DNA of 8,341 nt from a virus (lineage: Duplodnaviria > Heunggongvirae > Uroviricota > Caudoviricetes): the IMG/VR virus record IMGVR_UViG_2681813265_000006; one strand, written 5' to 3'. The stretch's first letter is position 1; the number at the start of each line of letters is the position of its first letter. Positions 1 to 8,341 of this stretch are shown piece by piece. The position numbers and the translations under genes were made by a program. Under the pieces are notes generated by a model, which was not told the DNA's origin, did not search any database, and saw nothing but the letters and a program-made list of their open reading frames with translations.

Positions 1-37
1 AACAAATGGTAGTGTCCGCTATTGCCAGTACACCTCA
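1..37. repeat. IR-L: left arm of a 37-bp perfect inverted repeat (partner at 8298..8334)
   Basis: Positions 1..37 are the exact reverse complement of 8298..8334. Each arm carries 5 nt of leader, an ATG and the first 10 codons (MVVSAIASTP) of an ORF reading into the window. Identity breaks at 38 / 8297; the arms may extend beyond the window edges. Confidence 0.9.
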
Positions 38-122
38 GGGTATAAGGGGTTATGGCCACCGGACTACCAAACGGCTGCCAGCCCTCTTTCAGTTTATGTG
101 TCAGCTTTTCCGCAAGATCTGA
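6..122 (+). pseudogene. Short ORF (38 aa, MVVSAIASTPQGIRGYGH...) that shares its first 10 codons with gene A (8099..8329) and then diverges; probably a truncated or recombinant remnant
   Basis: ATG at 6..8 inside IR-L, stop TGA at 120..122. Divergence from the gene A sequence begins exactly at the IR boundary (codon 11). Followed by a 12-bp perfect palindrome GGCGGCGCCGCC at 124..135. Confidence 0.3.
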
Positions 123-357
123 CGGCGGCGCCGCCCTGACAACATCATAGTGTTTAAATGCCATGGTTCTTTCCACCATCTGAAAAATAATTCTTTAAAA
201 TACCTGACATGTAATACAGAAAAAACACAAAACCATACCTTAAATAAAAACCTGATTATCAAGCAGATATGCATGGATAAACTACAAGACGAGATATAAA
301 CCACCCTGCATTTAAATAAACAATAAACAACATCAGAAAAATAATTCTGCTCTATGG

Positions 358-384
358 TTTACATTCAAAAATATCATTTATACT
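358..384 (+). promoter_or_regulatory. Putative sigma70 promoter for the ORF at 425..760
   Basis: TTTACA (358..363), 15-nt spacer, TATACT (379..384). An AAGGA Shine-Dalgarno lies at 414..418, 6 nt before the ATG at 425. The region is AT-rich, so promoter-like hexamers are expected by chance. Confidence 0.25.
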
Positions 385-424
385 TTTCAGAACATCACCA
401 GCAAGGCATAAACAAGGAAACTAA

Positions 425-760
425 ATGAAGTGGATTGTGATTGATACAGTTATCCAGCCATCATGCGGAATATCTTTTTCAGTCATATGGAGTAAAATAA
501 AATTAATAATCTGGTATCAATCGGATGCTTTCTTACCTCCTGAAAGTATATTTACACTGACTCACACAGGCATCATGCTCAATAACAAAGTGCTACCTGT
601 AACCATTTACAACGTAGTACCATTCAATAAAACATTCTGGAATTCAATCAAAAATAGCCAGGAATGCCCTACAAATACAGATAACGTATTGAATGAATGC
701 TTTAATAACCGTTGCACTCTGCAAATATGTCCTTATGGACTAAAACAACAAAGTCCATAA
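425..760 (+). CDS. Hypothetical 111-aa Cys-containing protein encoded in an AT-rich island, on the strand opposite to all phage genes
   Basis: 111-codon open frame in markedly AT-rich DNA (where stop codons are frequent), with a good SD (AAGGA, 6-nt spacer) and a candidate promoter. No family recognised by eye. Confidence 0.35.
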
Positions 761-794
761 GGAGTTTACTCACATCTGACAAAATCAATATAAA

Positions 795-816
795 CAGCCC
801 CTCCGGAGAGGGGCTG
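795..816 (-). terminator. Perfect 9-bp-stem hairpin (CAGCCCCTC-cgga-GAGGGGCTG), terminator-like for minus-strand transcripts
   Basis: Stem 795..803 / 808..816, loop CGGA. On the minus strand it is followed by a U-rich stretch (GUUUAUAUUGAUUUUG); on the plus strand no U tract follows. The 3' arm is the first bases of repeat R2 copy A. Confidence 0.35.
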
Positions 817-1022
817 GAGAGTGGCGCTATGTGCCATTGCATGGTGCCGGGTGCCTCCCGGTGAATTCAGTACCAGCACCTGAATCCGCGATTATCCCAT
901 ATACCTACTCGCTGATTGCCCCTCCGCACAGGGGGATTCACCATGCCAGTTTCTTTTAACAAACTCCCCGCAAACCAGACAACAGTCAACCGCCTGAATT
1001 GTGAAGTATTTAAAAATTTCTC
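811..1022. repeat. R2 copy A: ~212-bp direct repeat (partner at 2136..2347)
   Basis: Offset of exactly 1325 bp between copies. One mismatch in the first ~175 bp, about 6 mismatches in the last ~40 bp. Contains hairpins and a conserved SD + ATG (943). Confidence 0.85.
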
Positions 1023-1207
1023 CCGCTAACTGATACCCGGCTAACAGTCTGGCGTTTTCTTTTTCAGCAACGGGAAAGCAACAACCACCACACCCGCCAC
1101 CAGCACACCGTCAGCCAGCACTGACATTATCCGGCTGCTGCAATGCCATTCACAAAAACAGTAAGCAATCACTTTTTACCGTAACAGGTGATAATCCAGA
1201 TATGTAT

Positions 1208-1534
1208 CTACCCCAGATGAGTAATCCGAAGTTCATCCATACCACAGGTCCTGGCTATTCTGTTGTACTCCTGAACAAGAGCAAATAATTCTGAATTAGC
1301 AACCATGAACTCATCGCAAACCCTCTGTATAGCATCACTATTCAGAATAATAACGTCTCTTCCCGAAAGACGATCAGGAGTACAGAACAAAACTGTCAAA
1401 CGGCTGAAGGCCTTTGCTCGTGCTGCATTGACTATATCAATACGCTGCCTAAGGATGAAACACCCCGACGCCTCATCAATATTCACTCTACCCACACCAT
1501 ATGAATGATAAATATTTAATGCTGAAAAAACCAT
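1208..1534 (-). CDS. Hypothetical protein, 108 aa from ATG 1534 (117 aa if the TTG at 1561 is used); unrecognised cargo ORF downstream of tRNA copy 1
   Basis: Longest ORF in the 650-bp block (1023..1671) that is absent from the second module copy. Weak SD. The TTG-start version has a hydrophobic N-terminus (IECLLYGLMVFSALNIY). No family recognised. Confidence 0.3.
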   Translation of the reverse strand: MVFSALNIYHSYGVGRVNIDEASGCFILRQRIDIVNAARAKAFSRLTVLFCTPDRLSGRDVIILNSDAIQRVCDEFMVANSELFALVQEYNRIARTCGMDELRITHLG

Positions 1535-1671
1535 TAGACCGTATAACAAACACTCAATCAATACTTAACAGAACTTTTATTTTTGACAAACATAAAATAT
1601 TTTCAACAATATCCTGAGCCAGGTATATTTCAGTATAAGGCTCTGCCGGAAGGAATCTGGAAGAATGAATA

Positions 1672-1748
1672 TGGCGCGCTGTACTGGATTCGAACCAGTG
1701 ACCGATTGCTTAGAAGGCAATTGCTCTGTCCGGCTGAGCTAACAACGC
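1672..1748 (-). tRNA. argO: tRNA-Arg (anticodon UCU), copy 1
   Basis: Reverse complement folds as a cloverleaf: acceptor GCGUUGU/ACAGCGC (U4-G69 wobble), anticodon loop CUUCUAA, T-loop UUCGAAU, 3' GCCA. Third gene of an ileZ-argN-argO-type cluster as in Stx phages. Confidence 0.85.
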
Positions 1749-1761
1749 TGAATACCGATAA

Positions 1762-1842
1762 TGGACCGCCATCGGGGACCCGCCCCCGCACCAACAACCC
1801 TGTTATCGTGTCGTCTGCTCTTCCTGATAAGCTAATGGCGGT
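1762..1842 (-). pseudogene. Degenerate tRNA-Arg(UCG)-like gene (argN remnant), copy 1
   Basis: The 5' acceptor/D-arm and the 3' acceptor end match the intact copy at 2467..2543, but the central ~35 nt (anticodon arm, variable region and T-loop) are replaced by unrelated sequence. No canonical anticodon stem or T-loop can be drawn. Confidence 0.55.
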
Positions 1843-1848
1843 TTGTGA

Positions 1849-1924
1849 TGGTGGCCCTTGCTGGATTTGAACCAGCGACCTGGCGATTATGAGTCGCTCG
1901 CTCTCACCACTGAGCTAAAGGGCC
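1849..1924 (-). tRNA. ileZ: tRNA-Ile2 (anticodon CAU, ileX-like, lysidine type), copy 1
   Basis: Cloverleaf with anticodon loop CUCAUAA and T-loop UUCAAAU. Near-identical in sequence to E. coli ileX/ileY as I remember them. Identical to copy 2. Confidence 0.85.
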
Positions 1925-1961
1925 GGGAGCAGAATAATAACGGTCCGTAATTAATTCCGCA
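1925..1961 (-). promoter_or_regulatory. Putative promoter of tRNA cluster copy 1
   Basis: Minus strand: -35 TTGCGG (1957..1962), 17-nt spacer, -10 TATTAT (1934..1939), about 8 nt before the tRNA-Ile 5' end. Homologous to 2627..2664 upstream of copy 2. Confidence 0.4.
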
Positions 1962-1962
1962 A

Positions 1963-1987
1963 TAAAAAACCCGCTCGGCGGCGGGTT
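1963..1987 (-). terminator. Duplicate copy of the late terminator tR'
   Basis: Minus-strand hairpin AACCCGC-cgccga-GCGGGUU followed by U6; same sequence as 4193..4217. Confidence 0.7.
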
Positions 1988-2034
1988 GTAGAAACTCTTC
2001 TAACGTCAGGCATAAAACGCCCATAGTTATGACG

Positions 2035-2062
2035 AATTTACCACAGATTCCGGAAAAATCAA
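2035..2062 (-). promoter_or_regulatory. Duplicate copy of the late promoter PR'
   Basis: -35 TTGATT (2057..2062), 16-nt spacer, extended -10 TGGTAAATT (2035..2043). The initial transcribed sequence has AACTAT where the genuine copy has AACGAT. Confidence 0.6.
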
Positions 2063-2135
2063 CCTAGTTACCTTTTTTAACTGCCGCTCAGCCCATGCTT
2101 CTTCAATATCAAACCGAGTCACCAGCGCATCATAA
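2063..2135 (-). pseudogene. Fragment of the Q 3' end (last ~24 codons) fused to R2; remnant from recombination or duplication
   Basis: About 97% identical to 4301..4373 (Q C-terminal codons plus stop region). It lacks the 8-bp tandem duplication present in the intact gene. Homology ends abruptly at 2135/2136 where R2 copy B begins. Confidence 0.8.
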
Positions 2136-2347
2136 GGGCTGGAGAGTGGCGCTATGTGCCATTGCATGATGCCGGGTGCCTCCCGGTGAATTCAGTACCA
2201 GCACCTGAATCCGCGATTATCCCATATACCTACTCGCTGATTGCCCCTCCGCACAGGGGGATTCACCATGCCAGTTTCTTTTAACAAACTCCCCGCAAAA
2301 CAGACAACTGTCAACCGTCTGAATTGTGAGACATTTAAAAAAAAGGC
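2136..2347. repeat. R2 copy B (partner at 811..1022)
   Basis: See copy A. Begins at the junction with the Q fragment; its other end overlaps the tRNA-cluster terminator. Confidence 0.85.
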
Positions 2348-2362
2348 CCGCAAAAGCGAGCC
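2337..2362 (-). terminator. Rho-independent terminator downstream of tRNA cluster copy 2
   Basis: Minus-strand RNA GGCUCGC-UUUU-GCGGGCC (7-bp stem with one U-G pair) followed by U8. The plus-strand equivalent would have a C-A mismatch and no U tract. Confidence 0.7.
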
Positions 2363-2376
2363 AGGGAAAATAAGTG

Positions 2377-2453
2377 TGGCGCGTTGTACTGGATTCGAAC
2401 CAGTGACCGATTGCTTAGAAGGCAATTGCTCTGTCCGGCTGAGCTAACAACGC
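2377..2453 (-). tRNA. argO: tRNA-Arg (anticodon UCU), copy 2
   Basis: Same cloverleaf as copy 1 but with U4-A69 Watson-Crick instead of U4-G69. Confidence 0.85.
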
Positions 2454-2466
2454 ATGATGCAGATAA

Positions 2467-2543
2467 TGGACCGCCATCGGGGACTTGAACCCCGCGCAGC
2501 CAGCTTCGAAGGCTGGCGCTCTTTCCTGATGAGCTAATGGCGG
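2467..2543 (-). tRNA. argN: tRNA-Arg (anticodon UCG), intact
   Basis: Acceptor CCGCCAU/AUGGCGG, D-stem GCUC/GAGC, anticodon stem CCAGC/GCUGG with loop CUUCGAA, T-arm CGGGG-UUCAAGU-CCCCG, 3' UCCA. Confidence 0.8.
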
Positions 2544-2550
2544 TATGTGA

Positions 2551-2626
2551 TGGTGGCCCTTGCTGGATTTGAACCAGCGACCTGGCGATTATGAGTCGCT
2601 CGCTCTCACCACTGAGCTAAAGGGCC
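2551..2626 (-). tRNA. ileZ: tRNA-Ile2 (anticodon CAU, ileX-like), copy 2
   Basis: Identical to 1849..1924. Confidence 0.85.
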
Positions 2627-2664
2627 GGGAGCCGCATAATAACGACGCGTAATTAATTCTTCAA
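2627..2664 (-). promoter_or_regulatory. Putative promoter of tRNA cluster copy 2
   Basis: -35 TTGAAG (2659..2664), 17-nt spacer, -10 TATTAT (2636..2641); directly abuts the methyltransferase stop codon. Confidence 0.4.
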
Positions 2665-2666
2665 TA

Positions 2667-3725
2667 TCATCCGTTCTGGCTGACTAAATCCTGTACTTCC
2701 CGAACCGTCTGCTCAAAACGTTCAGTCTCCAGCTCAACGCCAATTGCACGACGCCCGAGCGCCAGTGCCGCTTTCACTGTCGAACCCAACCCCATGAAAA
2801 AATCTGCAATCAGGTCACCCGGACGACTGCTAGCGCTGATTATCTGCTGCAGCATTTCTGCCGGTTTTTCGCACGGATGTTTCCCGGGATAGAACTGCAC
2901 CGGTTTATGCGTCCACACATCGGTATACGGCACCTGCACCGTCACGCCAAAATACCGCCGCAGATGTTTATATTCACTCAGCAGCTCCGCATACTGCCGG
3001 TTCAGTGAGGTATACGTATCCACCAGCTGGTGGTGGAGCTTTTCCAGTTCACCACGCCGATGCTTCTCTTCTGCCACCCGGGCAAACAGCGCCTGTAATT
3101 TCAGATAATCGCTTTCATTCGGCAACTGCCACTGACCGGCACTGAACCAGTGCGACACCATGTTTTTCTTTCCTGTGGCATCTGCAATCTGTTTTGCCGT
3201 TATCCCCAGGGCAGCTCGCGCATCACGAAAGTAAGAAATCAGCGGGGCCATCACATGCTGTTTCAGTGCACTGCCCTTCGCCGCATACCCGGCATCTTTC
3301 GGACGATACGGCCCCTGATAATGTTCCGCGAACAGAATGCGCTCTGTGGCGGGGAAATACGCCCGCAGGCTTTCCTTGTTGCATCCGTTCCAGCGTCCGG
3401 ACGGCTTCGCCCAGATAATATGGTTCAGCACACTGAAGCGTTCACGCATCATGATTTCGATATCAGATGCCAGGCGATGACCACAGAACAGGTAAAGACT
3501 TCCGGCAGGTTTCAGCACCCGCCAGAACTGCGCCAGACACTGGTCCAGCCACTTCAGGTAATCATCGTCGCCCTTCCACTGGTTATCCCAGCCCTCAGGC
3601 TTCACTTTAAAGTACGGCGGGTCCGTGACTATCAGGTCAACAGAATTTTCGGGTAACGACCGGATAAATTCCAGGCAGTCGGCGTTGATTAACTCACAAC
3701 TGGATATTTTTACAGTATTAAGCAT
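2667..3725 (-). CDS. Orphan DNA N6-adenine methyltransferase, beta class, prophage-encoded (352 aa)
   Basis: DLIVTDPPYF (motif IV, DPPY) near the N-terminus and FFMGLGSTVKAALALGRRAIGVE (FxGxG motif I, SAM-binding) near the C-terminus; the order IV then I indicates the beta class. The central region has an HTH-like segment (GITAKQIADATGKK...). No restriction endonuclease partner is present in the window. Confidence 0.8.
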   Translation of the reverse strand: MLNTVKISSCELINADCLEFIRSLPENSVDLIVTDPPYFKVKPEGWDNQWKGDDDYLKWLDQCLAQFWRVLKPAGSLYLFCGHRLASDIEIMMRERFSVLNHIIWAKPSGRWNGCNKESLRAYFPATERILFAEHYQGPYRPKDAGYAAKGSALKQHVMAPLISYFRDARAALGITAKQIADATGKKNMVSHWFSAGQWQLPNESDYLKLQALFARVAEEKHRRGELEKLHHQLVDTYTSLNRQYAELLSEYKHLRRYFGVTVQVPYTDVWTHKPVQFYPGKHPCEKPAEMLQQIISASSRPGDLIADFFMGLGSTVKAALALGRRAIGVELETERFEQTVREVQDLVSQNG

Positions 3726-3818
3726 GGATCATTAAGCCTGTCTCTGATAGGCTCATTCTGCTTTTGCGCAAAGCAGTGGGCCTGAGGTTTGCTTGTGAAC
3801 CCAACGCATGAGCAGATG

Positions 3819-3847
3819 GCTGGTGGGTGCCCCTAACACCCACCAGC
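3819..3847. other. Perfect 11-bp-stem palindromic hairpin (GCTGGTGGGTG-cccctaa-CACCCACCAGC) in the methyltransferase leader
   Basis: Seen directly in the sequence; no U tract on either side. A second near-perfect palindrome lies at 3758..3776 (CTGCTTTtgcgcAAAGCAG). Confidence 0.6.
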
Positions 3848-3860
3848 CGCCCATTTACCA

Positions 3861-3889
3861 CAAATAAAAAAGCCTTCACTGCGGAAGGC
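3861..3889 (-). terminator. Rho-independent terminator downstream of the small HTH ORF
   Basis: Minus-strand RNA GCCUUC-CGCAGU-GAAGGC followed by UUUUUUAUUU. The HTH ORF stop codon lies inside the hairpin. Confidence 0.6.
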
Positions 3890-4073
3890 GTCTGTAACAA
3901 CCGAACTGATAGTCTGCCAGACCCGCCATAACCAGCTGGGTCAGTATTAACTGGCAGCGTTCGCGTGAAAGGTAAGTATTCTGCGCTATCTCCCCGACTG
4001 TCGCCGGTTCGGTAACGCTTAATTCATTAAACACCACTCTGGCGGTTTCTGTCATATCCTGCTGTTTTAGCAT
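3876..4073 (-). CDS. Small (65 aa) putative winged-helix / HTH DNA-binding protein
   Basis: Good SD (AAGGA, 6-nt spacer). The segment TVGEIAQNTYLSRERCQLILTQLVMAGLADYQ resembles the recognition helix and wing of small wHTH regulators. First gene of the HTH-methyltransferase cassette. Confidence 0.45.
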   Translation of the reverse strand: MLKQQDMTETARVVFNELSVTEPATVGEIAQNTYLSRERCQLILTQLVMAGLADYQFGCYRRLPQ

Positions 4074-4192
4074 GTCTTTTCCTTTTCCGGTTAACGTGAC
4101 ACACCAATAACTCTTGTCGAAAAAGCCAGCAAGCTGAAAGACAGGTATTCACCGCCACCAGCGCGTTTACTGTACTGACGCGATTTCAGTCA

Positions 4193-4217
4193 TAAAAAAC
4201 CCGCTCGGCGGCGGGTT
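4193..4217 (-). terminator. tR' late terminator ending a short PR' transcript of about 65 nt
   Basis: Minus-strand hairpin AACCCGC-cgccga-GCGGGUU followed by UUUUUUAU, about 40 nt downstream of the predicted PR' start. Confidence 0.75.
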
Positions 4218-4252
4218 GTAGAAACTCTTCTAACGTCAGGCATAAAACGCCC

Positions 4253-4292
4253 ATCGTTATGACGAATTTACCACAGATTCCGGAAAAATCAA
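4253..4292 (-). promoter_or_regulatory. Late promoter PR' with sigma70-dependent pause element (qut region)
   Basis: -35 TTGATT (4287..4292), 16-nt spacer, extended -10 TGGTAAATT (4265..4273), then AACGAT at about +1..+6 (4253..4258). This is the same -10-like pause-inducing hexamer as in lambda PR'. Located immediately downstream of the Q stop codon. Confidence 0.7.
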
Positions 4293-4297
4293 CCTTG

Positions 4298-5119
4298 TTA
4301 CCTAGTTACCTTTTTTAACTGCCGCTCAGCCCATGCTTCTTCAATATCAAACCGGGTCACCAGCGCATCATAAAATTTCTTAACTGTTTTTTCCCATGAC
4401 GCGCGTGTTATCTGGTTTGTCACCTCGCATATAGCATTAAATGCCTCCGTTGATGGTAGTCTTTCATAGCCACGACCACCACAACGCTGGCAGTCTCTGA
4501 TAACAGGCATACCACGTTTTACCGACTCTTCACGATGAATGGCGACACCACGCCCACGGCAATCCTTACAGGCGGTGGAAACCTCACCCTTTCCGCCACA
4601 CTCCGGACAGGCAACTTTTACCACCTCCCTGACTTTTTTCCATTCTTCCCAGTAAGACGGATACACACCTTTCGTACACTTTGCCCATACCGGCGGCTTA
4701 CCATCCGGATACTGGATCTTGTTTGTAAAAACCTCGCTTTCAATAAATTTTTTTCCGTGACAGCAGGGGCACTGTTTTTTGCTCGCCGCGCTACGGGCAT
4801 AATCTTCAAACGCATACGAAGCCATAATACGCATCACTGCCGGTTTTATTTCTGCCGGGAGTTTTCTTAACGCCGCCACGCGATCACACCGACTGAGTGC
4901 ATATTCTGTCAGCAATTCTGTTGCCCGCTCTCTGTCATTCATACTAATGCCCATTTTCCCAAGGAACGCAGAAACCCCCATCTCAGCCCGATTCTGTGTC
5001 ATGCCCTGCGCGGCCATCACATCAGTGATACTCAGCGCATCTTTCGACGTTGAGGCCGATGCATCAGTCAGGCCGGGGGATTTTGGGGAGTAGTATTTCG
5101 GTAAATCTTCCAGTTTCAT
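4298..5119 (-). CDS. Q: Late-gene antiterminator Q (273 aa)
   Basis: Position immediately upstream of a lambda-like PR'/tR' unit. Several CxxC pairs (CPCC, CPEC, CKDC, CQRC) consistent with Q-family zinc fingers. ATGA overlap with rusA. Confidence 0.8.
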   Translation of the reverse strand: MKLEDLPKYYSPKSPGLTDASASTSKDALSITDVMAAQGMTQNRAEMGVSAFLGKMGISMNDRERATELLTEYALSRCDRVAALRKLPAEIKPAVMRIMASYAFEDYARSAASKKQCPCCHGKKFIESEVFTNKIQYPDGKPPVWAKCTKGVYPSYWEEWKKVREVVKVACPECGGKGEVSTACKDCRGRGVAIHREESVKRGMPVIRDCQRCGGRGYERLPSTEAFNAICEVTNQITRASWEKTVKKFYDALVTRFDIEEAWAERQLKKVTR

Positions 5120-5496
5120 TTTTTGACCTGCCCTTCAAGCATTATGGGATAAATCTTCACCCCCAGACGTCCACCAGATACTGGCTGAGCACGAACGATA
5201 TTGATTTCATCAAACTGCTCATCGTCCATTAGCAACCCCGCATGCGTCAGCGCATCCAGCGGCGCTTTCAGAATATTGTCCAGGTCACGGCGGCGCTTAT
5301 CCGGTGGTTCTGCAATAATTTTTATTGCCAACCTTCCGGACAGGCTTAATTTCAGCCGCTGCTGGCGAACAATAAGCGCCACTGCCCGGCGATAACGCTC
5401 CCCGGCTTTTGATACAAAATATGTGCTGCCACGACGACGCCAGTAAGTGTTCACCGTCGGCGGGTAAGGTAAAACAAATTCTATGCGCTCGGTCAT
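5116..5496 (-). CDS. rusA: Holliday-junction resolvase RusA (126 aa)
   Basis: N-terminus MTERIEFVLPYPPTVNTYW and the acidic catalytic region RRRDLDNILKAPLDAL...LLMDDEQ match RusA. Its start abuts the stop of the upstream ORF (TAAATG). Confidence 0.85.
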   Translation of the reverse strand: MTERIEFVLPYPPTVNTYWRRRGSTYFVSKAGERYRRAVALIVRQQRLKLSLSGRLAIKIIAEPPDKRRRDLDNILKAPLDALTHAGLLMDDEQFDEINIVRAQPVSGGRLGVKIYPIMLEGQVKK

Positions 5497-6555
5497 TTAT
5501 GCTTTCCACTTCAGAACACCCGAATTTCTCGCGTGCATTAAAAAACGAATCAGCAACAACAGCTGACTGCCGTGTTTCTCTTCAAAATCTTTTACTCCGG
5601 CATGTAGTTCGTTACGGCATTTACGGCATAACGGAATAACAAACAAATCATCAGCCTTTGTTCCCATCCCTCCCAGTCCATGACCAATGATGTGATGCGG
5701 ATCATCTGCCTGATTGCCACACGTCATGCATTTCTGCGTTTTTACCCAGCGCGTGTATACAGGCATCTCTTCCCGTTGTGATTTCTGGCGCTGGAGATAC
5801 TGAGCCGGTGACTCCGGATCAACGGCAATGCTGACCACCGTCTTTTCCTGTGGTGGGTTCTGTTGCTGGTGGACGTGAGGCAGTAACGCAATATTTTTTG
5901 TGCGCTGCTTCAGTATGCTGGTGGCTGTCTGCTCTCCCGGTATGATGTCGCTTTCACTGTACACAGAGCGAATTTTTTCCGCACGCAACCCCAGCGAACG
6001 ACGTAATACCGCTTCCGGTAGCGCGTCCGCCACCTGATTGCGGACCGCCCACCAGGATAATTCAGCCAGAGATAATTCACGCTCCTGCGTACCGCTTATT
6101 GCGTGACCGATGACGTCAATCATCCATGCTGACAGGTTTTGATGAGCAAGTTGCTCGAGTGATTCGGATGTCTGGTCACGCAGCTGGTTGTCGCAGTGCC
6201 AGCACAACACCATTGCGCCGGTACCATAACGGTGAATGACGGTTTCGCTGTGATGATAATCGCCGTGTGGCCACTGGCAGGATTTAATATGGCGCAACAG
6301 CCAGTCAGACAATGCACCAGCACCACCAGCAGCACGAATCACCCGTGCGTTACTGAAAAACGGCAGCAATGTTTTGTCTTCCACCAGCGGCTGGCGAGCG
6401 GCAGGAACGACCCCGGACGGCAGATTACGCATGCTTTTTGGTTCCGGCTCCACCAGTATTCTGCCGTTATGGAATGCTGACATTGATTCACGGCCTGGCT
6501 TAACGATAACCAGACCGAGTTCCGGTACCAGAACAGGTCGAAGTAATACCCGCAC
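5497..6555 (-). CDS. Prophage nin-region protein, YdfU-like (DUF968) with a C-terminal Cys/His-rich HNH-like motif
   Basis: Synteny hokD-rem-(this ORF)-Q as in the Qin prophage. C-terminal CMTCGNQADDPHH...CRKCRNELH resembles NinG/HNH zinc motifs. The start is ambiguous: GTG 6555 has GGAGG 4 nt upstream; the alternative ATG at 6483 gives 328 aa. Confidence 0.55.
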   Translation of the reverse strand: MRVLLRPVLVPELGLVIVKPGRESMSAFHNGRILVEPEPKSMRNLPSGVVPAARQPLVEDKTLLPFFSNARVIRAAGGAGALSDWLLRHIKSCQWPHGDYHHSETVIHRYGTGAMVLCWHCDNQLRDQTSESLEQLAHQNLSAWMIDVIGHAISGTQERELSLAELSWWAVRNQVADALPEAVLRRSLGLRAEKIRSVYSESDIIPGEQTATSILKQRTKNIALLPHVHQQQNPPQEKTVVSIAVDPESPAQYLQRQKSQREEMPVYTRWVKTQKCMTCGNQADDPHHIIGHGLGGMGTKADDLFVIPLCRKCRNELHAGVKDFEEKHGSQLLLLIRFLMHARNSGVLKWKA

Positions 6556-6630
6556 ATTACCTCCAGATCCGTTGCTGGAATGTGCGGGACGGACGCGTTG
6601 GCCGTTCGGAGTAAGGGAGCCTGACGGAGA

Positions 6631-6912
6631 TTATCCAGTGACGGTAGTCGAGGCTAAGGGCTTTTTTAACCTCGCATCCGCGCCTGCGGTAACACTGAAT
6701 GAGCCATTCGGCCTGTTCTTCAGTGCATGGGGGATGCTGGTACCAATCAGATTTAAATGCGTGAGAGCGCCGCCCGTGCCTGCTGGCAAAGACGGCTGAA
6801 TTATCAGAATTGTGTAGTCTGGAAGGCAGTGGCTGACAATAGCGCCATTCTCAACGCGCACAGTATAGAGGCCATCTTCACTAAAAATTTCACGTAATTC
6901 TTCGATTTTCAT
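6631..6912 (-). CDS. Rem-like small ORF (93 aa) at the position of Qin rem
   Basis: ATG at 6912 preceded by GGAAGGA with an 8-nt spacer. The N-terminal 25 residues look protein-like; the remainder is low-complexity and overlaps a long stop-free alternative frame (see findings). Confidence 0.4.
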   Translation of the reverse strand: MKIEELREIFSEDGLYTVRVENGAIVSHCLPDYTILIIQPSLPAGTGGALTHLNLIGTSIPHALKNRPNGSFSVTAGADARLKKPLASTTVTG

Positions 6913-7033
6913 CAACAGAATCCTTCCAGATAAATAGCACTCCCCTGTTCGGGGTCCATCCCTCTTCTCCCTGCGCGCTACTTAAGTATTTTTGATTCTA
7001 TTCCGGCACCATCTAAAACTTCAAACGCGTTGA

Positions 7034-7064
7034 AAATAAAAACAAAAACCCGCCGAAGCGGGTT
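7034..7064 (-). terminator. Rho-independent terminator of the hok transcript
   Basis: Minus-strand AACCCGC-UUCG-GCGGGUU followed by UUUUGUUUUUAUUUU. A GAAA-tetraloop stem-loop (plus coordinates 7104..7125) lies just after the hok stop. Confidence 0.75.
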
Positions 7065-7132
7065 AAGTGTGGGTGCATTGAGGATGCCTGACCCATCAGA
7101 GGTGGCGAGGGATTTCTCCCCCGCCTGGTCTC

Positions 7133-7288
7133 TTACTCCTCAGGTTCGTAAGCTGTGAAGACAGCGACCTCCGTCTGGCCGGTTCGAATTCGTACCTCGC
7201 AGAGGTCTTTCCTCGTTACCAGTGCCGTCACTATGACGGTTAAACAGATGACGATCAGGGCGATTAACATCGCCTTTTGCTGCTTCAT
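7133..7288 (-). CDS. hokD: Hok-family type I toxin, HokD/RelF-like (51 aa)
   Basis: Translation MKQQKAMLIALIVICLTVIVTALVTRKDLCEVRIRTGQTEVAVFTAYEPEE matches HokD as I remember it. SD AAGGAG lies 9 nt upstream. The ORF-track version (7133..7345) adds an in-frame 19-codon extension. Confidence 0.85.
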   Translation of the reverse strand: MKQQKAMLIALIVICLTVIVTALVTRKDLCEVRIRTGQTEVAVFTAYEPEE

Positions 7289-7499
7289 AGCCTGCTTCTC
7301 CTTGCCTTTCGGCACGTAAGAGGCTAACCTAGATTTGCCGTTCATAGATTGAGCCTCAGATTAATGTTAAGCGTCTTGCCGGACGCGTAATGTTAACTGG
7401 GGCTTTTCTCTATCTGCCTTTTGGTGTTCATGCCTGAGACAGATAGCCTCAAGCACCCGCTGCAATTCTACTTAACTCTCCTTTTCCCGCAAACCGTTT

Positions 7500-7583
7500 T
7501 TATCCCCAGCGGCAAATCGAATACACCACCAGCGCCACCGCCATCGCAATTCCTACCGTTGTTAATGCTTCAGGCCAGGTCAT
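7500..7583 (-). CDS. 27-aa hydrophobic peptide ([27 protein letters not shown]), translationally coupled to gene C
   Basis: Its ATG overlaps the gene C stop (ATGA). A single predicted transmembrane helix. Below the ORF-track size cutoff, found by manual translation. Confidence 0.4.
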
Positions 7584-7924
7584 CGTAAAATATCCTCCAC
7601 GCTTATCAGTCCGTTCCGCTCCAGATAACTCATCGCCTTATCCGGTAATTTGCAGTCTGGCTTCGCTTTCCTCAGTTGCCAGGTTAACTGCTTTACCAGC
7701 ATGGTTAACTCATCGACCAGACGCTGATATCCCACTGGTTTGTATTCATGCAATTTACCGGCTGGCTCTGCTGCCAGCGATACCAGTGCGATTTCCAGAA
7801 CAGCAATATCCATCTTATATGTGCGGATGATGTCATGGTCGATTGTGCCCGGTATGCACAGTCTCTGTGCTTCAATAGTCTCCTCTGCGTGAGCTATTAA
7901 CTGCTCTCTGGTAAAAGTCGTCAT
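7580..7924 (-). CDS. Hypothetical nin-region protein C (114 aa), paralogous to gene B
   Basis: Its ATG overlaps the gene B stop (ATGA). Shares MTTxTxE at the N-terminus and an A(L)xSLxAEP motif with gene B. Confidence 0.6.
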
Positions 7925-8088
7925 GCCGTAGCCCCTTCTTGATATTTTTCAAACCAGAACACAACCGGCTCTGCTTCCAGCGATGCCAGCGCAATCCGTG
8001 CCAGTTCCATTTGTTCACCACGGGTAAGCCCGTTTTCAAGCGGGTTTTTAATGAACAATTCAATACGTTCTTTGGTAATAGTGGTCAT
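7921..8088 (-). CDS. Hypothetical nin-region protein B (55 aa), short paralog of gene C
   Basis: ATG at 8088 preceded by AAGGAG (6-nt spacer), which overlaps the gene A stop. Translation [55 protein letters not shown]. Missed by the ORF track because it is under 60 aa; the track's 7872..8063 ORF is the wrong frame. Confidence 0.55.
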
Positions 8089-8098
8089 GTGTTACTCC

Positions 8099-8329
8099 TT
8101 AACCCGCAGTGCTTTCAACTGATGAGGGGAACAAAATCTTTTCATCAAACCCTGCATTCATATCATGAACAGCAACACACCAATCCATCGACGAACGATT
8201 ATCAAGAGCCTCCATGATTTCATCCATGCGGCGTAGGTCATACAGGTAAATGCTTTTATCGCCAATGGTGTAAAAGCCAATTTTTTTCGGTGATGGATGA
8301 GGTGTACTGGCAATAGCGGACACTACCAT
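8099..8329 (-). CDS. Hypothetical protein A (at least 76 aa), first gene of the coupled A-B-C-D operon; its start lies within IR-R
   Basis: The ORF reads from the ATG at 8329. There is no in-frame stop in the 4 codons upstream before the window edge, so the true start may lie outside the window. No family recognised. Confidence 0.45.
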   Translation of the reverse strand: MVVSAIASTPHPSPKKIGFYTIGDKSIYLYDLRRMDEIMEALDNRSSMDWCVAVHDMNAGFDEKILFPSSVESTAG

Positions 8330-8334
8330 TTGTT
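8298..8334. repeat. IR-R: right arm of the 37-bp perfect inverted repeat
   Basis: Exact reverse complement of 1..37; contains the ATG (8327..8329, minus strand) of CDS 8099..8329. Confidence 0.9.
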
Positions 8335-8341
8335 CTTTTTT

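Follow-up and report, generated by a model that had tools for sequence, protein, structure and literature searches.

Results and Discussion

The two ends of the DNA analysed here carry the same short sequence in opposite orientation, which raises the question of what this repeat is and whether it allows the 8.3 kb in between to be inverted. The window (the whole stretch of 8,341 nt) begins with 37 nt that are the exact reverse complement of positions 8298-8334. The arms are 100% complementary, and each strand of the window has exactly one copy of the 37-mer, in agreement with the original prediction of a perfect terminal inverted repeat. Chance does not explain the repeat, since the 37-mer was found in none of 200 dinucleotide-preserving shuffles, even with 3 mismatches allowed. 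The suspicion that it extends further was correct as well: the seven bases at 8335-8341 also match the insertion sequence IS600, giving a right arm of 44 nt. All features are compiled in Table 1.

Table 1. Features of the 8,341-nt window
Feature	Position	Strand	Evidence or remark
IS600 copy a, last 37 nt, IRR end past transposase stop	1..37	+	identical to L002 3001-3037 and L022 9577-9613
Spurious 38-codon ORF	6..122	+	10 IS600 codons, then antisense of DUF1737 fragment
DUF1737-SASA-DUF6645 gene, 5' fragment, 43 codons	38..164	-	Pfam DUF1737, E = 1e-15
111-aa IraM/PmrD-like protein gene, low G+C	425..760	+	L001 homologue annotated as anti-adapter protein IraM
sRNA STnc100, full copy, module B	786..975	-	Rfam RF02076, 132 bits vs gathering score 47
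tRNA-Arg(TCT) and tRNA(CAT), module B	1672..1924	-	ARAGORN; Rfam tRNA
Q_B, second antiterminator Q gene, last ~180 nt	1955..2134	-	rest of gene absent
Non-homologous junction of two blocks from different S. sonnei loci	2134..2135	.	exact matches either side
sRNA STnc100, second copy, module A	2136..2300	-	Rfam RF02076, 104 bits
tRNA-Arg(TCT), tRNA-Arg(TCG), tRNA(CAT), module A	2377..2626	-	ARAGORN; Rfam
N6/N4 DNA methyltransferase	2667..3725	-	Pfam PF01555, E = 8e-42
Antitermination protein Q (Q_A)	4298..5119	-	Pfam PF03589, E = 2e-53
RusA Holliday-junction resolvase	5116..5496	-	Pfam PF05866
DUF968/HNH-like protein	5497..6555	-	Pfam PF06147, E = 3e-62
hok/sok type I toxin-antitoxin locus	7133..7458	-	Pfam HOK_GEF, E = 3e-23
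76-aa fusion ORF	8099..8329	-	8099-8297 phage gene 3' part (phrog_1714), 8298-8329 IS600
IS600 copy d, last 44 nt, IRR end, inverted vs copy a	8298..8341	-	identical to L003 9989-10032

The repeat arms are ends of two IS600 copies

Almost certainly, the arms represent the same IRR terminus of two separate, oppositely oriented copies of IS600 (IS3 family, known from E. coli and abundant in Shigella), each cut by a window edge. Both are 100% identical to the IRR of annotated elements (37/37 and 44/44), without any sequence difference. The left arm equals the end of an element that RefSeq lists as "IS3-like element IS600 family transposase", noting a programmed frameshift (locus L002), and the end of a full 1,264-bp IS600 in locus L022. 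The right arm is matched without difference by IS600 copies of 2,714 E. coli genomes, where the features are annotated as IS600 transposase, and altogether by thousands of IS600 copies. A single genome has up to 43 occurrences of the 37-mer and 44-mer, which lie on chromosomes as well as on plasmids. This insertion-sequence identity is missing from the original prediction.

IS600 has the imperfect terminal inverted repeats of the IS3 family with a 5'-TG start and a CA-3' end. Its IRL reads TGAGGTAGCC... and the reverse complement of its IRR TGAGGTGTAC..., with agreement at only 24/45 positions. The 37/37 match of the arms is therefore IRR against IRR, and two copies are involved. An explanation of the arms as IRL and IRR of one inward-facing element was rejected, since the arms are both IRR and the two IS bodies lie on their outer sides.

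These junctions are shared by 20 S. sonnei chromosome loci, in which a full 1,264-bp IS600 adjoins window position 38 (copy a) and 8297 (copy d) exactly. The complete reference copies at both sites encode an orfAB transposase with programmed frameshift and carry HTH_Tnp_1 and rve (DDE) domains. Copies a and d differ from each other at 0-2 positions over the full 1,264 bp in S. sonnei genomes. Just 37 and 44 nt of IS600 are visible in the window; judging from these and the reference genomes, both IS bodies are presumably present outside it. The true inverted repeat is thus 1,264 bp, the length of IS600. When 5,426 complete E. coli genomes and every phage and plasmid record were compared, matches to the interior ended at 35 and 8297, marking the arms as foreign to the prophage.

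IS600 produces a 3-bp target duplication, and a clean one (TCC-IS-TCC) surrounds the neighbouring third copy b. It is absent from both copy a (TAG-IS-GGG) and copy d (TTT-IS-TCC), as is to be expected after recombination or rearrangement. This indicates rearrangement after insertion, with copies a and d as the breakpoints. Both halves of the split 87-aa phage gene at the right end carry GGA.

Recombination between the inverted copies

RecA-dependent homologous recombination can use inverted IS copies as its substrates and then inverts the sequence between them; this is the usual way in which Shigella genomes are rearranged. In S. sonnei CP022457.1, the one reference with both copies placed, copy a lies on the + strand and copy d on the - strand, 734 kb apart. 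The complete genome CP045932.1 (L011) instead joins the outer flank of copy a (8.3 kb, 99.9% identical) to the inner flank of copy d. Compared with other S. sonnei genomes it is recombinant across copies a and d, and recombination rather than misassembly probably lies behind its arrangement. IS-mediated inversions in S. sonnei are documented (PMC12795559).

The two inverted IS600 copies each mark a breakpoint of the decayed lambdoid prophage, where a DUF1737-SASA gene is truncated by the left copy and the start of an 87-aa phage gene is removed by the right one. According to the mechanism we propose, RecA-dependent recombination between them would invert the intervening DNA. The arms had been predicted to be the inner edges of a longer inverted duplication able to invert the segment. 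Structurally this was right and it holds in principle, given the inverted orientation of the 1,264-bp copies in S. sonnei and the CP045932.1 recombinant, but the reference spacing is 734 kb and not 8.3 kb. The window is colinear with no reference, owing to the junction at 2134/2135, and its 8.3 kb is a putative interval between the copies in the source.

Genes and RNAs between the arms

The interior is the late-regulatory region of a decayed lambdoid prophage, and its blocks are 100% identical to S. sonnei chromosomes. The 111-aa protein has a precomputed Pfam assignment (PF11183, PmrD), whereas our own Pfam scan gave no match at E ≤ 0.01. The Q_B fragment shares 96-99% identity with the 3' end of Q at 4185-4373, and in L022 this sequence runs on into a full 284-aa Q gene. 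In the STnc100 copy of module A the 3' terminator hairpin is cut by the internal junction, compared with an intact copy in L003. The sok RNA at 7283-7458 reached 112 bits (Rfam).

Window positions 1-2134 are an exact match to L022 9577-11710, and positions 2135-8341 to the reverse complement of L003 9989-16195. In CP022457.1 these blocks lie 726 kb apart in the same orientation, and they are unjoined in all 20 S. sonnei loci fetched. Neither IMG/VR nor the JGI metagenomes or GTDB representative genomes contain a 32-mer spanning the junction, and a 200-nt query across it returned split matches only in the 5,426 complete E. coli genomes. The junction-spanning 46-aa ORF has no record. Furthermore, no colinear record covering arms and interior was found among complete E. 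coli genomes, phages and plasmids. As a cause of the junction, a k-mer fork was rejected, because a 17-nt exact match exists on one side only and there is no shared sequence. An origin by homologous recombination of the paralogous modules (Q, tRNA or STnc100) was discarded, since the join lies outside the homology. A hairpin-induced assembly break is unlikely with a terminator stem of only ~7 bp.

Spacing of the two copies

We see an even chance that the window is an assembly or concatenation artefact, in which two pieces ending in collapsed IS600 were joined; the repeat would then be real, but not its spacing. The window consists of blocks 1 and 2 in succession without overlap, and each matches an S. 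sonnei locus of its own at 100% identity. This fits such a join, as do the outer ends, both of which stop just inside IS600, and the restriction of the junction to this window in the collections searched. Short-read assemblies do break here, and the block 1 and block 2 proteins are mostly found on 2-10 kb contigs. However, the inner block ends differ from usual contig ends: typical contigs would reach an IS21 (~3.8 kb) and the third IS600 copy (~6.45 kb). The one-sided 17-nt match without a shared k-mer does not fit an artefact either, and the entry into IS600 by 37 nt at one end and 44 nt at the other is unlike a fixed k-mer overhang.

Alternatively, and with somewhat lower probability, the window might be a faithful contiguous piece, i.e. 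an 8.26-kb prophage remnant between inverted IS600 copies, which can flip by IS-IS recombination and might move as a composite transposon. Both IS600 junctions are genuine S. sonnei junctions, and de Bruijn graph assemblers make no junction like that at 2134/2135 without spanning reads. The arrangement could result from a balanced inversion that broke Q_B and the STnc100 of module A, and S. sonnei inversions without flanking IS copies have been reported (PMC12795559). The reciprocal junction predicted by this inversion model is, however, absent from the GTDB representatives, and a simple join would amount to a 726-kb deletion, as the blocks have the same orientation in CP022457.1. The lack of the junction and its ORF in all collections named above, the unjoined state of the 20 S. 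sonnei loci and window edges that resemble contig ends just inside IS600 argue against a faithful piece, too. In a moving unit both outer ends would be IRL. The reference outer flanks are TAG and AAA without target duplication.

It is a tentative and rather doubtful idea that a non-homologous fusion in one S. sonnei-like strain linked the stretch from the Q_B 3' end to the DUF1737' tail of one prophage with the late-regulatory region of another, inside the STnc100 terminator. If the arrangement were true, two inverted IS600 copies would lie within 8.3 kb and bound a new small module carrying hok/sok, Q, the methylase, five tRNAs, two STnc100 copies and the iraM-like gene. Such an IS600-bounded module could flip or conceivably transpose. 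The internal junction is the sole loose end, and it concerns how sound the source assembly is and not new biology.

Open reading frames across the IS600 ends

An ATG at 6-8 (+) and at 8329-8327 (-) opens the sequence MVVSAIASTP in each arm, and the two ORFs then diverge (QGIRGYGH... left, HPSPKKIGF... right) as described in the original prediction. These codons are not a duplicated gene start but a frame that is open by chance through the IS600 end, so that the same ten codons become fused to whatever adjoins each copy. The frame stays open for 34 further codons upstream inside IS600.

At the left end, the ORF continues to a stop at 122. It is antisense noise that is never called as a gene, and for its 38-aa product there is no gene on record. 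The gene truncated there lies on the opposite strand: the DUF1737 fragment covers profile positions 1-46 of 53 and is identical at 39/43 positions to the N-terminus of an intact 658-aa protein in L017. It is cut after codon 43 by the left IS600 copy, and the E. coli matches all stop at 35. The predicted breakpoint on the left thus exists, but the truncated gene is that for DUF1737 and not the chimeric ORF.

At the right end, the IS600 copy has cost the 87-aa phage gene its first 22 codons. Residues 10-76 of the 76-aa fusion ORF align to positions 21-87 of the 87 in the PHROG profile phrog_1714, and over residues 12-76 its product matches residues 23-87 of WP_000224216 (L001), the intact 87-aa protein, at 100% identity. 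The intact homologue has a different 22-residue N-terminus, and MVVSAIASTP has no place in the conserved family start. Gene calls of exactly this fusion ORF exist in 795 blocks of public assemblies, and in the loci shown it always follows directly after an IS600 transposase.

That recombination duplicated a gene start (the ATG and 10 codons) and produced a chimeric truncated ORF is very improbable. The same codons do open ORFs at both ends, and many public assemblies list the right ORF as a gene, but the codons occur in thousands of IS600 copies whatever the neighbours. The alignment of phrog_1714 from residue 10 only, without the first 20 profile positions, and the antisense position of the uncalled left ORF speak against it as well. 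The IS600 identity of the codons together with the phrog_1714 and 87-aa protein alignments refutes a gene-start duplication, and the claim that the repeat includes the start codon of a gene found no support.

Comparison with known systems

Large IS-mediated inversions in S. sonnei and other IS-rich pathogens resemble the present case in using inverted IS copies as portable homology, with an interval of 734 kb in CP022457.1 compared to 8.26 kb in the window. Composite transposons (Tn10, Tn5) share the two inverted copies of one IS around a cargo, and the same IS does flank the segment here, as far as 37 and 44 nt allow. A single target duplication and varied contexts were not found (outer flanks TAG and AAA), and neither the whole unit nor the internal junction was detected in the E. 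coli, phage, plasmid, IMG/VR, JGI and GTDB collections. The cargo is a broken prophage without a selectable module or evidence of the unit moving.

Prophage DNA between inverted repeats is also typical for the phage invertible segments G of Mu, C of P1 and P of e14. These have 26-34-bp sites and an adjacent serine invertase and switch tail-fibre genes, whereas the window lacks an invertase, its repeats are IS ends and its cargo is the Q/late-regulation region. Although short perfect inverted repeats bound prophage DNA here as well, the probability that the arms are crossover sites of a site-specific invertase switch (Hin/Gin/Cin/Pin or Fim type) is negligible and the idea is contradicted by the data, as a scan of 13 window proteins against Pfam and PHROGs gave no recombinase, the arms are ends of a 1,264-bp IS instead of 26-34-bp sites, and they are absent from all related prophages.

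Conclusions

The explanation of the inverted repeat by IS600 is an ordinary and already known one; IS600 copies, the resulting gene truncations and IS-mediated inversions are well documented in Shigella. Where a perfect inverted repeat occurs at both ends of a window or contig, IS termini should be checked first. ORFs that apparently start inside IS ends are artefacts of read-out, but annotation nevertheless passes them on. The 76-aa fusion ORF is such an artefact, called in hundreds of assemblies.

The inverted repeat represents IS600 ends

The left arm, AACAAATGGTAGTGTCCGCTATTGCCAGTACACCTCA, is located at positions 1-37 and its exact reverse complement at 8298-8334. This 37-mer occurs only twice within the window, and none of 200 dinucleotide-preserving shuffles contained it with up to 3 mismatches allowed. 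Exact complementarity and shuffles thereby confirm the original prediction of a perfect 37-bp terminal inverted repeat with an ATG in each arm; common to both arms is ATG GTA GTG ... (MVVSAIASTP).

Whole-window matches among 5,426 complete E. coli genomes, phages and plasmids span only positions 35 to about 8297, ending at the inner arm edges. When the ends were searched separately, the interior parts led to prophage genes. The arm parts behaved as a mobile repeat does, with as many as 43 matching places in a genome and hundreds of plasmids among the records matched. The right-end 44-mer (8298-8341) was found with 100% identity in 2,714 genomes, where the overlying features carry the annotation "IS3-like element IS600 family transposase". 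At an E. coli IS600 locus (L002, NZ_CP074946) the element comprises 1,264 bp, starting with TGAGGTAGCCTGAG and ending with GCTGCTTAAAAAAAGAACAAATGGTAGTGTCCGCTATTGCCAGTACACCTCA. Its transposase carries an annotated programmed frameshift, and the stop codon is the TAA immediately ahead of the A-run. The IS600 termini match each other at just 24 of 45 positions. The 37/37 match of the arms is therefore one of IRR against IRR, and thus indicates two separate, oppositely oriented IS600 copies whose bodies both lie beyond the window edges. The 7 bases past the right arm are still IS600; on the left side the window ends at the arm. The arms are the IRR terminus of IS600, contributed by two inverted copies (copy a, left; copy d, right) that the window edges cut off; the repeat is genuine, but nothing out of the ordinary.

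Truncated genes at the window ends

The interpretation of the arms as a duplicated gene start was wrong. The MVVSAIASTP codons are IS600 sequence, in which their frame has 34 further open codons upstream, and are carried by every IS600 copy regardless of its neighbour. The 76-aa ORF at the right end is a fusion whose match to phrog_1714 begins only at residue 10, aligned with profile position 21 of 87. From residue 12 to residue 76 it shows 100% identity to residues 23-87 of the intact 87-aa protein encoded by a related E. coli prophage. The N-terminus of that protein, 22 residues long, is unrelated (MATLTKKEQAWLNELQDVLDRC). This fusion ORF was called in 795 blocks of public assemblies and always directly follows the IS600 transposase in the loci shown. 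The plus-strand ORF at the left end has no record as a called gene and is antisense to a DUF1737 gene fragment, the 43 N-terminal codons (Pfam E = 1e-15 over profile positions 1-46 of 53). At 39/43 positions this fragment is identical to the N-terminal end of a DUF1737-SASA-DUF6645 protein of 658 aa; IS600 cuts the gene after these 43 codons.

In S. sonnei genomes, the 22 N-terminal codons lost from the 87-aa gene were located 3.4 kb from copy d (6543-6609 of the chromosomal locus L003). There, this 5' end stands in inverted orientation as a fusion with a truncated integrase adjacent to ompW, and GGA is present on either half of the break. The split gene suggests that an older local inversion took place in connection with the IS600 insertion.

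Features of the window, listed from right to left, and the adjoining IS600 copies
Feature	Position	Strand	Basis or remark
Right fusion ORF, 76 aa	8099-8329	-	ORF call
Three small phage ORFs	right of hok/sok	-	
hok/sok type I toxin-antitoxin locus, complete	7133-7458	-	Pfam HOK_GEF; Rfam sok, 112 bits
DUF968, then RusA, then antiterminator Q		-	
65-aa ORF and N6/N4 methyltransferase		-	
Three tRNAs	2377-2626	-	
sRNA STnc100, second copy	2136-2300	-	Rfam RF02076; without 3' hairpin
Second Q gene (Q_B)		-	last 180 nt
Two tRNAs	1672-1924	-	
117-aa ORF		-	
sRNA STnc100, other copy	786-975	-	Rfam RF02076
iraM-like gene	425-760	+	
DUF1737 fragment	leftmost	-	
Left ORF	6-122	+	antisense to DUF1737 fragment
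IS600 copy a	CP022457.1 3,361,287-3,362,550	+	
IS600 copy d	CP022457.1 4,096,952-4,098,215	-	

Prophage interior

The interior derives from a lambdoid, Stx-phage-like prophage and constitutes its late-regulatory region. All of its genes are encoded on the minus strand, except for the iraM/PmrD-like gene, and their order from right to left is the direction of transcription. The layout of tRNA genes downstream of Q is the same as in Stx-type phages, and one STnc100 copy lies downstream of each tRNA block. Direct repeats with 91-99% identity (811-1029 / 2136-2354, 1659-1964 / 2364-2666 and 1955-2135 / 4185-4373) correspond to STnc100, the tRNA block and the Q 3' end, paralogous modules of the late region that stem from two different lambdoid prophages and are now in tandem.

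The five phage-borne tRNA genes downstream of Q comprise Arg-TCT (two), Arg-TCG (one) and CAT (Met or Ile2, two). For the 111-aa product of the iraM-like gene, the homologue in an E. coli prophage (L001) is named IraM in RefSeq and precomputed tables give Pfam PmrD; our own Pfam scan of the protein yielded no match at E <= 0.01. The two labels are a minor annotation discrepancy. At 6824/6825 some S. sonnei genomes contain an extra 250 bp with the rem gene (11505-11756 in loci L004/L009). This stretch is deleted in the window and in most other genomes, leaving a 94-aa ORF with a PHROG family match over its first 30 residues only.

The internal junction

Chromosomes of 4.8-5.0 Mb carry the exact 76-aa ORF and the 111-aa protein, among them HE616528.1, which belongs to Shigella sonnei 53G (PMC5447701). 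The same loci bear ipaH-type genes (LRR_TTSS and NEL domains). Window positions 1-2134 show 100% identity to 9577-11710 of the S. sonnei locus L022, and positions 2135-8341 to the reverse complement of 9989-16195 of L003. The coordinates of IS600 copies and blocks in CP022457.1 were derived from the loci found, both copies being placed in that genome; here the two blocks have the same orientation and lie 726 kb apart.

The blocks meet at 2134/2135 (CATCATA/AGGGCTGG), where the Q_B 3' end meets the STnc100 copy of module A, the late-region module in the right block, inside its terminator hairpin. The two sides have no homology in common. Their counterparts in the reference genomes are uninterrupted, one belonging to a full-length Q gene and the other to a complete hairpin. 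None of the 5,426 E. coli genomes contained the junction, nor did IMG/VR, JGI metagenomes or GTDB representative genomes. Furthermore, no junction-spanning ORF occurred among records of called genes, and the predicted reciprocal junction was absent from the GTDB representatives. The junction is either a strain-specific rearrangement, which would then need to be a balanced inversion, a deletion of 726 kb being implausible, or an artefact of assembly or concatenation. For an artefact, the window edges just inside IS600 do resemble contig ends, but the inner block ends differ from usual contig ends and no k-mer is common to both sides of the join.

Probable recombination between IS600 copies in S. 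sonnei

A full 1,264-bp IS600 adjoins both outer edges in those S. sonnei genomes, copy a on the side of the truncated DUF1737 gene and copy d on that of the 76-aa ORF. The two copies differ from each other at 0-2 positions and are found on opposite strands of CP022457.1, i.e. they are inverted, 734 kb apart. Neither has matching 3-bp target duplications, whereas a third nearby IS600 (copy b) is flanked by TCC/TCC, indicating that copies a and d are old rearrangement breakpoints. Rearrangements mediated by IS elements are a well-documented phenomenon of S. sonnei (PMC12795559).

In the complete S. sonnei genome CP045932.1 (L011, 1-10032), compared with L021 and L003, an IS600 connects the outer flank of copy a (8.3 kb, 99.9% identical) with the inner flank belonging to copy d. 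The suggestion that the arms might be the inner edges of a longer inverted duplication through which the segment could invert was thus right in kind, given this natural recombinant across both copies; the invertible interval may span 8.3 kb in the source, as in the window, but measures 734 kb in a reference genome. The arrangement in CP045932.1 is the product expected of recombination between exactly copies a and d, and implies an inversion of about 734 kb.
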